NCBI GenBank assembly: GCA_036503335.1
Contig: DASXXC010000037.1
Location: 782-64,781, forward strand
Source of the DNA: Thermoanaerobaculia bacterium
GTDB lineage: Bacteria > Acidobacteriota > Thermoanaerobaculia > Multivoradales > UBA5704
DNA: 64,000 nucleotides
Reading direction: 5' to 3'
Both the position numbers and the translations under genes were made by a program. Positions 7,371-40,035 of this stretch are shown one piece after another; the stretch's first letter is position 1; each line of letters opens with the position of its first letter. Under the pieces are notes generated by a model. The model was given only the letters and a program-made list of their open reading frames with translations. It was not told the DNA's origin and did no database searches.

Positions 7371-10300
7371 ATGGGGAATCGAAGCGTTTGCCGTCTCTTG
7401 GTGCTCCTGGGGATCCTGCTGGCGTGGCCCGCGATGGCCGCGGCCGGGGACCTCGGGAGCGCCCAGCTGCTCATCGCCGGCAGCCGGCTGACGGTCTCTC
7501 CGGAGAGCCAGACCGTCCCCTTCGACACGCCCACGATCGTCGAGACCCATCTCGAAGGCTACGACACGAGCCGCGGCACGCTGCCCGCGGATCTGCGGGT
7601 GCTCGCCGACCTCACCGGCCCCGAGGTCGATGGTGTCCTGGTCCTGGAGACCACCCCCAACCAGCCGTTCCGCATCCCGCGGCTGCGGCTCCAGGGGGAG
7701 TACCGGCTGGACAACATCCGACTGATGCAGGGGAGCACGCTGCTGGCCTATGCGGCGCCCCGCTCCTCCTCGGTGCTGGTCACCCAGGTCCTGATCACCA
7801 AGGTCACCTCGCGCGCGCTCACCCTGGACGAGATCCGCAGCTACGGCATCGTCGTCGACGACAGCAGCTTCCAGGCGTTCAACTTCACCTTCGCCTTCGC
7901 GGTGGCCGGCGAGACGGTCAACTACAACGTCCCGGTCATCTATCAGGGGCCGGCCAGCGATCCGGCGATTCTCTGGGAGGGGCCGAATTACGAGTCCTCT
8001 TCCTCCTGGCGGTCCTCCTCGGCCCGTTTCGAGCCGCCGCGGATGGCGCCGTTCCAGCTCCAGTTGGCGGGGAAAGCGGTGGATGACTCGAACGGCGGCT
8101 GCGAGGACCCGGAGGGGGACTGCGTCAAGCCGGACGTCATCCCGATCCCCGGAGTGATCCTCTTCCCCACGGACATCAGCCTGCTGCACCAGTTCTTCTC
8201 GGTGGTGCTGCTGGCGCAGAACGGCGCGCCGGCCGGGGACCGCCTCACCATCCGCGATCTCACCGCCAAGGTCACCCTCCCTCCCGGGCTCCGCCAGGCG
8301 AAGACCGATCCCCCCACGGCCCTCGGCGTGCCGGTGCCGGTGCGCGTGCCGGGGCCGGACGGCAAGCTGGGCACGGCGGACGACATCACCTTCCTGGTGG
8401 CGCAGGCCACCGGGCAGGCGGAGGTGGAGGTCGAGGGCCTCAGCGAGGGGACGCACCTCGTGCAGTTCGATCTCGAAGGCATCCTGGAGGGGCTGCCCGG
8501 GGGGCAGATCAGCCGGATCACCGGCCAGGCGCGCGGCGCCGTGATCGTGCGCGACCCCACGCTCAACGTCACCATCACCCATCCGGACACGGTGCGGACG
8601 GACGAGGAGTACACCATGCTCCTCACCGTCACCAACACGGGCAACGTGCCGGCCAACCAGCTCAAGGTCCGGCTGCCGGCCGAGAAGCTCTCCGGCGTGC
8701 AGGTGGTGGGGGAGAGCGAGAAGACGGTGACGGTGCAGCCCGGGGACGCCGAGATCCTCGACTTCCGGCTGAGGTCCCGCCGTACCGGCCGGGTCACCGC
8801 CACGGCCGCGCGCAGCGACTCCTCGTCGCTCTCGGCGACGTTCGACCTCACCGTCGGGGTGGGGGAGAACGGCATCCCGCTGTCGCCGAACGCGATCATC
8901 CTGCCCCGTTCGACCGATTCCCTGCCTTCGGACCTGATGCGCAACGGGCTCAATCTGATCGGCCTCGGCTTCTCGCTGGCGACCGCCCCGCCGGCGCTCC
9001 TGAAGGCCGACCAGCCGCGGCTCTCGCGGGCCCTGGTGGACGGGCGGATCTACGCCTTCGCCCAGGCCGGCAAGCAGGTCTCGCTCGGCGAGGACCTGTT
9101 CGACAGCGCGGCCGTGCTGGCGGCCGAGTGGACGGGCGTCCGCGACGCCGACTGGGACTGGGACCTGCTCCGGCGCACCACGCAGAAGGGGGCCCAGGTG
9201 GGCGCCTCGCTGGGCACGATCTTCGCCGCCGAGGCGGCGGCCCATTCGCCGCAGGAGGCTTTCGACCGCTTCGCCAAGACCACCGGCTATCTGCCGGCGA
9301 TGGAAGGGGCGCTCGCCACCGGCGCGGGGGTGACCCTGGAGGTCACCAGCCGCACCAACGGCCTGCGGCTGGCGGGGGACGGCAACGACTCGGCGCGGCT
9401 CCGTGCCCTGCCGTTCGCCGATCTCTACAGCCTGGGTAACGCTCAGATGGCGCTGCTGGCGGTGCCGGAGGAGGGGGGCTACCGGGCGCGCGTCCGGGCG
9501 TCCGTCGGCGGGCCGGTGGACCTCCATCTGCTGGTCCCGGGGAGCGACGGGGCCTTGCGGATGGTGCGCTGGACGGCGGTGCAGCTCTCCGCCGGCGGGA
9601 CCGCCACGGTCGACTTCCGCGCCGCCGATTCCTCCTTCACCCTCGCCGTGGACACCCAGGGGGACGGCACGGTGGACGACCAGATCGCGGGGAGCGTCGA
9701 GGTCCTCCAGCGGCGGCCGTTCCAGGCGATCGCGGCGGTGCAGAACGTCGAGGTCGACCCCTCGGGGCACGTGGTGGACGTCCTCTTCTCGGCCGATGTC
9801 GATCCACGGAGCCTGATCCCCAGCGACGCGCGGAAATTCACCATCCCGGGCAAGGTCTCGAACGGCGGCTCGGTGAAGGCCGAGCAGGACGTGACCGACG
9901 GCGCGGGGAACACGGTCCACAACCCGTTCGACGGATTGCGCAACACGCGCATCGTCCGGGTGGTGTTCAACAATCCGCTCTCTCCCTATACGACGCAGAG
10001 CCTCACGGTGAGCGGCGTGAAGAGCCCGCTCGGCGAGCAGGTGACGTCGGCGACGGTGCAGGTGCAGACGACGGGGGCGCAGCAGGGCACCCAGGTGGCT
10101 GGAACGGTCTACGGCTCGGACGGCCTGCCGGTCCCCTTCGCCCAGGTGGAGCTGCGGGAGAGCGACCCCTGCCTGTTCTGCGAGGAAGAGTGCCGCACGC
10201 ACAAGACCGCGGTGGTGCAGGCGGACGCTGCCGGCCACTTCCTCTTCGATTACGTCCGCCAGACGGGGTGCAGCGACGTCTATCAGCTCAAGGCGATCGA

Positions 10301-39527: not shown

Positions 39528-40035
39528 AGGTGGTATGGACAGGAAGACGCTTCGACCGGCGTGGCAGCCAAGCCTGGCTCCGGGTCGCGAATGGACGCTG
39601 GAGCATCTGCGGAAGTACCTCGGTGGGCGGTCGTTCACCCTGTATGCCCATGGCTCCTGTGTTGTGTGGATTGGGGCCGGTGAGCTCAATGTCGCCGAAG
39701 CCAATCAGCGGCTGCGTGCCGTGACCCTCCAACACCCGGACTTCAGGGTTCAGCGGCACACTGACGGCAACTACCTCGTGACGTTCAAAGGCGGCGTTGG
39801 CGGCCTCATGTCCGGCGAGTTCTTGGCGACTCACTGGGCAGGTTTACGCCAGGAAGCCCGAACCCTGGGAATACTGCCTTCCGAGAAACTGCTTGTCGAT
39901 CGGCACGATGACGCGGAAGAGCTAGACATGATCGCGGGGCTGTACGTCCGCGCGCATCTTTACAGGGATGTGGACGAGCTCGTCGTGGCGGCGACTGTCC
40001 GTCGGAGTTACGCCGAAATCTCTGGTGAATCATGA
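39520..40035 (+). CDS. candidate immunity/accessory protein 2 (171 aa)
   Basis: ATG 39520 overlaps the preceding stop (39525-39527) by 8 nt, suggesting coupling. No family recognised. Same lower-GC cassette. Confidence 0.45.
   Translation: MNEGGMDRKTLRPAWQPSLAPGREWTLEHLRKYLGGRSFTLYAHGSCVVWIGAGELNVAEANQRLRAVTLQHPDFRVQRHTDGNYLVTFKGGVGGLMSGEFLATHWAGLRQEARTLGILPSEKLLVDRHDDAEELDMIAGLYVRAHLYRDVDELVVAATVRRSYAEISGES

Follow-up and report, generated by a model that had tools for sequence, protein, structure and literature searches.

The 64,000-nucleotide (nt) stretch analysed here, referred to below as the window, comes from contig DASXXC010000037.1 of the Thermoanaerobaculia bacterium assembly GCA_036503335.1 (Acidobacteriota) and has a G+C content of ~70%. 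It carries a forward-strand unit of four genes (Table 1): a gene for a very large protein called giant 1 in what follows, a gene for a second giant of the Rhs type (rhs), and two small open reading frames (ORFs), orf3 and orf4. An ORF scan with translation and a direct reading of the junctions bear out all the coordinates of an earlier, first-pass annotation of this DNA, as well as the ATGA overlap, the 4-nt gap, the orf3/orf4 overlap and the two Sec signal peptides that it had described. The ATG of rhs shares its letters with the TGA of giant 1. The frame of giant 1 is uninterrupted back to a GTG at 7254 (a 5999-codon ORF, 7254-25253), and its Sec signal peptide, amino acids (aa) 1-23, begins at ATG 7371 with MGNRSVCRLLVLLGILLAWPAMA followed by A (cleavage AMA/A). 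The signal peptide of the Rhs protein covers aa 1-40 and ends in ...LALWA/QT. An alternative ATG of orf3 is found at 39069. As a convergent minus-strand ORF starts at 40030, the unit ends at orf4. The 450-nt gap 5' of giant 1 holds one sigma-70-like site where 0.1 would be expected, a match to consensus only; a scan for terminator-like sites and hairpins returned none at the gene junctions or at the end of the unit. We infer that giant 1 and rhs are co-transcribed. The Rhs protein was found identical, in the same four-gene order, on three independent Logan contigs; since identical or homologous proteins exist in independent assemblies, the genes are real.

Table 1. Features of the four-gene unit (positions are those of the window)
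Feature	Position	Strand	Remarks
Sigma-70-like promoter candidate	7165-7194	+	TTGCAA-18-TATAGT
Giant 1 coding sequence	7371-25253	+	5960 aa; ATG 7371, TGA 25251-25253
Giant 1, conserved N-domain (aa 24-900)	7440-10070	+	beta-sandwiches, ~125-aa helical bundle (aa 513-637), further beta-sandwiches
Giant 1, CarboxypepD_reg (transthyretin-like) array (aa ~900-2040)	10071-13490	+	~9-12 copies; PF13620 2.2e-62 in 9 stretches; self-similarity
Giant 1, two Big_5 and first Big_7 pair (aa 2066-2499)	13566-14867	+	Pfam; self-similarity
Giant 1, Gly-rich beta-helix modules M1-M3	14868-18245	+	~375 aa each; self-similarity
Giant 1, Big_7 pair, degenerate M4, Big_7 pair	18246-20723	+	M4 at 18978-20015; Pfam; self-similarity
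Giant 1, modules M5-M8	20724-25250	+	four tandem copies of 1.12-1.13 kb; repeat self-comparison
Rhs coding sequence	25250-39058	+	4602 aa; ATG 25250, TGA 39056-39058; polymorphic toxin
Rhs, N-terminal immunoglobulin (Ig) stalk (aa 46-835)	25385-27754	+	Big_13, four Glucodextran_B, Big_5, Big_6, CarboxypepD_reg (Pfam)
Rhs, LVIVD-type beta-propeller-like region (aa ~1990-2560)	31217-32929	+	Pfam LVIVD E=1.7e-4; blade-like motifs repeat
Rhs, DUF6531 plug (aa 2679-2746) and RHS/YD shell (aa ~2750-3950)	33284-37099	+	Pfam/NCBIfam/PDB
Rhs, insertion of two Big_5-like Ig domains (aa ~3955-4200)	37112-37849	+	~240 aa; Big_5 9e-8
Rhs-associated core (aa 4241-4306)	37970-38167	+	DPMGL at aa 4302; TIGR03696 4.3e-19
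Pre-toxin sub-domain (aa 1-~145 of the C-terminal region)	38168-38599	+	matches confined to query residues 1-145
Toxin domain	38600-39055	+	~140-150 aa, YRG ... SVTT ... ESEY; R / S / E-x-E signature
orf3	39063-39527	+	154 aa; ATG 4 nt past the rhs stop; TGA 39525-39527
orf4	39520-40035	+	171 aa; ATG overlaps the orf3 stop; final gene of the unit

Giant 1 is probably a working partner of the Rhs toxin carrier and not a chance neighbour. A scan of 185,579 species-representative genomes with the C-terminal sub-domain of giant 1 recovered 30 loci, five of which end inside the giant gene and were not judged. In 21 of the 23 evaluable loci (20 genomes), the next ORF after a giant-1-type one carries a signal peptide and has homology to the N-terminus of the Rhs protein (37-69% identity); the distance between the two ranges from -4 nt (ATGA-type, taking the first possible start codon) to +21 nt; where a 10 kb flank is visible, the similarity of the downstream ORF extends into the RHS repeats. 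The only negatives are the Myxococcota locus L036, which has a module homologue, and L038, a spurious 53-aa match. Homologues of giant 1 are thus not found mostly without an adjacent Rhs gene. At the remaining two evaluable loci, both distant (L035 and L037), the next gene has the same Big_13/Glucodextran_B vocabulary. Seen from the Rhs side, a giant-1-type gene lies directly upstream on the same strand in four of five contexts (L004, L005, L006 and L008; 45-71% identity, upstream products of 5200-6400 aa). Each protein has kept its own signal peptide in every locus. The paired bacteria are soil and sediment relatives, at least 20 of them, and the homologues of both giants come almost all from metagenome-assembled genomes (MAGs) of Thermoanaerobaculia/Acidobacteriota, including Ca. 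Multivoradales, an order of that class.

More distant relatives were sought with a profile of the giant 1 N-domain. This metagenome scan yielded 17 loci at 27-40% identity, nine of them evaluable, and in all nine a same-strand giant Ig-rich protein adjoins the N-domain homologue. The pairing in 21 of 23, four of five and nine of nine evaluable contexts supports the dedicated two-component arrangement of giant 1 and Rhs that the first-pass annotation had put forward. An Rhs giant lies upstream of the giant 1 relative in L045, L049, L052 and L055, and the same order is found in a Limisphaera genome (Verrucomicrobiota, L042) and at a closer homologue, L039 (57% identity). The gap is 269 nt in L045 and ~700 nt in L039; in the other Rhs-upstream loci it measures -50 to +32 nt, too little for an immunity gene. 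In L044, L046 and L051, the upstream Ig-rich giant has another C-terminal end. The L044 protein has a Pfam LVIVD match and no recognised payload, and the propeller-like region of the Rhs protein studied here has short tblastn matches in those of L046 and L051. The payload of L051 is a subtilase (Peptidase_S8). That of L046 is possibly a metalloprotease, going by an HExxH-like motif alone (ILHEWAHY, read in the sequence), with no protease family match. L043 has a 1840-aa ORF upstream with no Pfam match, and in L050 and L056 the neighbour is downstream, an Ig- or PKD-domain gene of which the first ~420-555 aa are visible. Over query aa 1-~2490, the distant relatives of giant 1 match its N-domain, CarboxypepD_reg array and Big_5, but they have no Gly-rich modules, and a Multivoradales variant (L029, 1658 aa) consists of modules alone. 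As Rhs is missing from some of the distant partners, what is conserved is the association of the giant 1 family with a giant Ig-rich stalk protein next to it. Rhs with its toxin is the commonest of several interchangeable payloads on that neighbour.

Two copies of the pair, or tandem arrangements, were observed in one Ca. Multivoradales MAG (L029, L034) and at L039. In the tandem form, an Rhs end is followed by small ORFs, a short module-only giant of 1658 aa and the next Rhs, which suggests cassette duplication and modular reshuffling.

Giant 1 is an all-beta fibre- or adhesin-like protein without translocator features. Its conserved N-domain has no Pfam match at E<0.01 and 30 homologues, every one partial. 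Foldseek matched its AlphaFold 2 (AF2) model, which has a predicted local distance difference test (pLDDT) score of 75, to generic macroglobulin (MG)/Ig arrays alone, with a template modelling (TM) score of ~0.1. The top matches were alpha-2-macroglobulin and complement chains (E to 2.6e-8), but an alpha-2-macroglobulin identity was ruled out by the low TM score and the lack of the CxEQ thioester motif, which leave generic MG/Ig strings. The rest of the protein includes three Big_7 pairs and eight Gly-rich modules of ~375 aa. Modules M5-M7 share 85-93% aa identity with one another and ~80% with the N-terminal half of M8, and the nucleotide identity within M5-M8 reaches 96% (300-nt windows). 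These 1.1-kb repeats were missed by Tandem Repeats Finder (period limit 500) and recovered by a separate repeat search. The end of M8 is the conserved tail of giant 1, ...VDSTSxVIxxxP. The modules have no Pfam, NCBIfam or PDB match, and no PDB sequence match was obtained for aa 1-5000 of the protein. In the AF2 model of M6 (pLDDT 92, predicted TM score 0.93), long Gly-rich loops extend from a body resembling a beta-helix, and a small beta-barrel lies at the C-terminus. Foldseek found no PDB match to the model at E<1e-3; taken by itself, the barrel is similar to the N-barrels of F1-ATPase and to tail-tip domains of phage lambda, and the only matches to the whole module are weak ones to viral Gly-rich 'collagen-like' proteins (TM ~0.3). 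With a confident model and no significant match among solved structures, the eight-fold module is a structural target in itself. Pfam and NCBIfam gave no TcA, PAAR, VgrG or two-partner secretion (TPS) domain in giant 1 at E<=0.01, and no autotransporter, PEP-CTERM or type IX secretion system tail that could serve as an anchor, in agreement with the first-pass annotation, which had recognised none.

Two further observations concern these modules. Residues 3004-3078 (16380-16604, in M2) give a weak NCBIfam match to the N-terminal domain of AgmC, a gliding protein of Myxococcus (E=1.9e-5; 24 bits, where the cutoff is 275). With a Myxococcota homologue of the module (L036), this match raises the idea that surface or motility proteins of myxobacteria may contain a distant version of the Gly-rich module. 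The three Logan contigs, which are short-read assemblies, all begin 498 nt 5' of rhs, within the giant 1 repeats: they break in M5-M8, between the two genes. Because near-identical 1.1-kb repeats break short-read assemblies, almost all public homologues of giant 1 are labelled 'partial' and the pairing is easily missed.

The second protein is a true Rhs protein. Its repeats match RHS_repeat (PF05593, 8.8e-64) and TIGR01643 (2.4e-42), further matches are to DUF6531, TEN_YD-shell, YD_repeat_2x and TIGR03696 Rhs_assc_core, and the shell matches Rhs chains in the PDB down to 8.7e-24. The best PDB sequence matches of the protein are type VI secretion system (T6SS) effectors, TcB-TcC, teneurin-like proteins and teneurins. 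The N-terminal ~2650 aa lead from Ig-type domains through a stretch without any family to the propeller-like region; a profile of aa 1880-2760 from nine orthologues found no match in the PDB. With giant 1 it shares a domain vocabulary noted in the first-pass annotation and confirmed by Pfam (PF13620 CarboxypepD_reg, PF13205 Big_5 and Big_7). A cryptic PAAR, TPS or toxin complex (Tc) domain in the N-terminal 2600 aa was sought with Pfam, NCBIfam and the PDB profile, and none was found. At E<=0.01, Pfam and NCBIfam detect no PAAR, VgrG, TPS, LXG/type VII secretion system (T7SS), MafB or SpvB/TcdB domain in the whole protein, and tiles of aa 836-2680 give no known delivery domain even at E<=1. 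The Ig insertion follows the last YD repeat (YTPYGE) and precedes the Rhs-associated core. The L008 homologue has it too, and the alignment to L004 covers it. The DPMGL of the core is the aspartyl autoprotease site.

The best-conserved part of the Rhs protein is aa 1-1500, with an identity of 0.56-0.71 per 100-aa bin among nine orthologues, versus 0.35-0.54 in the propeller and shell; the mature N-terminus (PPDTDPPxIxxLESG...) is also conserved. This is the opposite of the pattern expected of a passive spacer. Together with the conserved C-terminal tail of giant 1, the conservation of the N-terminal stalk hints at an interaction between the proteins, for which the stalk is a candidate docking part. 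Just ahead of DUF6531, at aa 2673-2681 (33266-33292), a conserved P-G-x-L-x-x-S-G-E was observed, whose P, G and E are invariant in the nine orthologues. T6SS Rhs proteins have an N-terminal autocleavage motif, PVxxxxGE. The sequence found here is one residue longer and may be a cleavage site that parts the stalk from the cocoon.

The 296 aa after DPMGL have no Pfam or PDB match. A HMMER scan of 1.84 billion representative proteins, which returned 183 relatives, resolves them into two parts. The first, the pre-toxin sub-domain, also occurs in proteins, some of 5800-6700 aa, whose C-terminal ends fall outside the match, and may be an entry or translocation domain like those of the C-terminal regions of CdiA (CdiA-CTs). 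The second, the toxin domain, stands last in proteins of 160-7300 aa. An alignment of 31 members of its family shows R13 (YRG), S32, S93 (SVTT), E133 and E135 (ESE) to be invariant, and the Ser-to-ExE spacing is ~40 aa. Such a spacing is typical of C3, iota and CT-like ADP-ribosyltransferases (ARTs). The family also shows the other R-S-E features of ARTs, the catalytic Arg and the S-T-S-type Ser. Weak matches to DRAT (PF07357) were obtained for four of the 31 members (best E=0.011). Attempts at a more direct identification failed: neither the protein nor the family profile matches Pfam or the PDB, by sequence or by profile, and the source annotations read 'hypothetical' and provide no names. 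The ART label of the first-pass annotation thus stands as to the R-S-ExE motif pattern and finds no counterpart in Pfam or the PDB; the toxin is probably an ADP-ribosyltransferase of the R-S-ExE clade. Since the same domain ends Tc-like (SpvB + TcdB_midN), T7SS-signal and plain Rhs proteins, it is a mobile polymorphic-toxin cassette. The C-terminal regions past DPxGL are unrelated in all the homologues examined (L004, L008, L029 and L039), which makes this a polymorphic toxin system on a conserved chassis. Directly behind the toxin, orf3 and orf4 are tightly coupled and without an informative family match: orf3 has two CxxC pairs (zinc-ribbon-like) and a zf-C3HC match at the Pfam threshold (9.9e-5), and orf4 has no family match in Pfam or NCBIfam. 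Both are candidate immunity or accessory proteins.

The explanation that we favor, with a probability of about 0.55, is that the coupled pair consists of two Sec-exported all-beta giants that act together as a contact-dependent antagonism device. We infer that the two proteins associate physically and are displayed at the cell surface. Both would leave the cytoplasm by Sec and cross the outer membrane possibly through a type II secretion system (T2SS), and the overlapping stop and start codons would keep their production in step. Giant 1 would be a long, semi-rigid fibre or scaffold made of the N-terminal domain, a rigid CarboxypepD_reg/Ig shaft and the eight beta-helix modules; from a count of its domains, its extended length is estimated at well above 100 nm. 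At the surface, it would hold the toxin carrier or extend or present its stalk, and/or bind the target cell. The Rhs protein would be the weapon, composed of the Ig stalk, the propeller-like region and an Rhs/YD cocoon around the polymorphic C-terminal toxin. The cocoon would protect and carry the toxin, the DPMGL autoprotease would free it inside the shell, and orf3 and/or orf4 would shield the producer. How Sec-dependent Rhs and teneurin-like toxins exit diderm cells and reach their targets is an open question in the field. A partner kept across at least 20 species, changes of gene order and payload swaps is a concrete candidate for that step.

Several observations weigh against this explanation. 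The pair is known from its genes alone, not from a transcript, secretion or protein-protein contact. Neither giant has an outer-membrane translocation or anchoring element according to Pfam and NCBIfam, and the flanking genes encode no dedicated transporter near the pair. The module homologue from Myxococcota (L036) has no adjoining Rhs gene, and the 10 kb upstream of L007, an Rhs-stalk homologue with 33% identity, contain no giant 1. The partner in the distant clade is sometimes devoid of Rhs, so the link is not to Rhs itself. In most related assemblies the break falls within giant 1, and full-length pairs are found mainly in long-read MAGs with frameshifted genes. The genes of large secreted proteins also tend to cluster for regulatory reasons, which could explain the adjacency, although it would not account for its depth or for the tight coupling. 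A broader and more tentative reading, which we regard as possible without leaning towards it, is that in diderm soil bacteria the giant 1 family and its Ig-rich stalk partner form a hitherto undescribed apparatus of two extracellular proteins for presentation or delivery, with an exchangeable warhead. It would cover Thermoanaerobaculia and at least one Verrucomicrobiota genome, with a partner propeller only where detectable, and its warheads would be an Rhs-caged polymorphic toxin, a subtilase and possibly a metalloprotease (HExxH-like motif). Giant 1 would then supply the delivery or anchoring factor that Sec-dependent Rhs and teneurin-like toxins are lacking so far.

Other explanations assign giant 1 a different part. 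One possibility, which seems rather unlikely to us, is that the Rhs protein is a self-sufficient Sec-dependent toxin of WapA- or teneurin-like type and giant 1 an adhesin or matrix fibre of general use, the two being co-regulated and physically independent; the operon would then be common only because both proteins serve cell-cell contact. The Rhs protein does have a stalk of ~2600 aa of its own, giant 1 resembles a generic adhesin, L007 shows that the carrier occurs without giant 1, and bacterial teneurin-like proteins have been described with no partner beyond an immunity gene (PMC13018210). Yet, mere co-regulation has to face an adjacency found in at least 20 species, down to 27% identity, in another phylum and in inverted order, stop and start codons that overlap or nearly abut, and an Rhs stalk better conserved than the shell, which would be unusual for a mere spacer. 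If, on the other hand, there were no functional link at all, the two genes would descend side by side in one lineage or stem from one ancestral gene split in two. Most positive loci do come from one class, Thermoanaerobaculia, and the domain vocabulary is common to both proteins. Nevertheless, a separate signal peptide for each protein in every locus, flanking genes that are not conserved, and a pairing kept at 27-40% identity, in either order, with swapped payloads and in one Verrucomicrobiota genome make this very improbable.

The translational coupling, which suggests a fixed stoichiometry, and the lack of a recognisable outer-membrane route or anchor in either giant would also fit a helper in export, folding or stabilisation, that is, a chaperone-like scaffold, periplasmic or extracellular, that brings the 480-kDa Rhs protein across or onto the outer membrane. 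This is improbable as well, since no beta-barrel, POTRA, TpsB, usher or secretin-like domain is detected in giant 1 by Pfam or NCBIfam, and a 5960-aa helper with a signal peptide would itself need export. Hardly credible, finally, is a giant 1 that does the work of TcA, with the Rhs cocoon docked on it and the toxin injected into the target through its channel, a view close to the ABC-toxin-like analogy drawn by the first-pass annotation. Two large components, of which one is an Rhs cocoon with a propeller-like region beside its shell, and a toxin family that also occurs on TcB/TcC-like proteins make the comparison attractive. But giant 1 has no TcA-type match in Pfam or NCBIfam, its modules and shaft are all-beta, its sole helical element is a 125-aa bundle with no long pore-forming region, the Rhs protein has no SpvB or TcdB_toxin_mid domains, and the payload may be a protease in place of Rhs. 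Searches of Pfam, NCBIfam and the PDB and two AF2 models with Foldseek returned beta-sandwich arrays and a beta-helix alone, with no Tc model and no significant PDB fold match, so that both a pore-forming giant 1 and the analogy were abandoned.

The T6SS, WapA-type and Tc routes listed for Rhs toxins by the first-pass annotation omit two classes. Signal-peptide-only ('T2SS') RHS polymorphic toxins have been recorded, Acidobacteria included (Zhang et al., Biol Direct 2012, PMC3482391), and Sec-dependent bacterial teneurin-like proteins (TLPs), also present in Acidobacteriota, have been described with no evident delivery machinery (Raoelijaona et al., Nat Commun 2026, PMC13018210). The Rhs half of the pair belongs to the former class, with which it shares RHS repeats, a C-terminal toxin that varies and is followed by putative immunity genes, export that starts from a simple Sec signal, and the lack of PAAR, VgrG and TPS; no accessory giant has been described there. 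In overall plan, it most resembles the TLPs, although membership of that family is not established by sequence. Common to both are the Sec signal, N-terminal domains of adhesion or transthyretin-like type, which vary, a C-terminal toxin that is polymorphic (with ARTs among those of the TLPs), a beta-propeller (here a propeller-like region) beside the YD shell and a small gene directly downstream (PMC13018210), and the TLP chains 9pt5 and 9ifo of the PDB match the YD region of the Rhs protein. However, the sequence match is confined to the YD repeats. Pfam and the PDB profile of aa 1880-2760 give no NHL or FN-plug signal here, and an LVIVD-type propeller signal and DUF6531 stand in the equivalent positions. 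The stalk is much longer (~2600 aa), an Ig insertion lies within the Rhs core, and the conserved giant partner gene has no counterpart reported in the TLP paper (PMC13018210).

Other known systems share single traits with the pair. T6SS Rhs effectors (RhsA, RhsP, Tse5, Tre23; PDB 7q97, 8cp6, 7pq5) are the best PDB sequence matches of the shell and share the DUF6531 plug, the C-terminal aspartyl autoprotease and the polymorphic toxin, whereas the window has no PAAR, VgrG, chaperone (EagR/DUF1795) or T6SS genes and the Rhs protein has a Sec signal. ABC (Tc) toxins are likewise multi-component, with an Rhs cocoon, an autoproteolytic DPxGL core and a very large separate protein alongside, and the same toxin family occurs on an SpvB/TcdB-type Rhs protein. 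Unlike in those toxins, giant 1 has neither TcA domains (VRP1, TcA_TcB_BD, receptor-binding) nor a helical channel, the Rhs protein has no SpvB or TcdB_toxin_midN/midC (the SpvB/TcdB models detect their domains in P0150, a working positive control), and both giants carry Sec signals, which Tc components do not. The CdiB/CdiA systems resemble the pair as it is proposed to work in their giant beta-helical surface filament, polymorphic C-terminal toxin, immunity gene (here a candidate) and contact action, and in a C-terminal region with a separate N-terminal sub-domain, as in CdiA-CT entry domains. They differ in that no TPS domain, filamentous haemagglutinin (FHA) repeats or TpsB transporter was found here in either giant or in the flanks, that filament and toxin are on two polypeptides, and that an Rhs shell encloses the toxin. 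WapA, a protein of monoderms, has wall-binding domains, whereas this phylum is diderm and no anchor was found. In the literature found, no paper joins Thermoanaerobaculia and Rhs, and a conserved giant partner is reported neither for Sec-dependent RHS/TLP toxins nor in work on giant genes, of which a preprint deals with Omnitrophota and does not cover this pair. What is new is thus the conserved giant partner, a candidate for the delivery or presentation step of Sec-dependent Rhs/TLP toxins.

A conserved third partner was sought upstream of giant 1 and rejected, as the flanks differ: they hold DUF1800/DUF1501 genes here, UbiA in L040 and an acetyl-CoA synthetase-like gene in L050. In the window, the two genes directly 5' of giant 1 (3199-6921, + strand) encode a protein of the DUF1800 type, with CHB_HEX_C and CHRD domains, and one of the DUF1501 type; this gene pair is absent from the upstream flank of L040, the sole related locus in which that flank could be inspected. 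The 20 flanking ORFs match no PAAR, VgrG, TPS/TpsB, T6SS or chaperone model in Pfam or NCBIfam. The first-pass annotation had likewise seen no PAAR, VgrG, TpsB or type I secretion system genes beside the unit, and a cluster of two HlyD-like genes and a MacB-type permease gene (49200-54305, + strand) is not adjacent, since it lies 9 kb downstream, past a formate dehydrogenase operon. It is followed by a 1145-aa ORF (to 57833) with no Pfam match. The cluster was not seen in the inspected flanks of related loci, and neither it nor the formate dehydrogenase operon is a conserved neighbour. Behind the pair of L004, in the 5.9-Mb genome MFD09730, a cluster (22826-26453) that may encode a contractile injection system contains small ORFs of tube size and a Phage_sheath_1C fragment; a link between such systems and the pair was dismissed, as the phage-sheath-like fragment occurs at L004 alone and not at the other loci.

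The formate dehydrogenase operon itself comprises the alpha subunit gene (41452-44799, + strand), followed by FdhH-like (44717-45706), cytochrome b (45703-46359) and FdhE (46356-47138) genes. The alpha subunit was split by the gene callers at an in-frame TGA (42034-42036, between ENQARV and HGPTV). Since this codon stands at the classic selenocysteine site, the two parts form a single selenoprotein gene.

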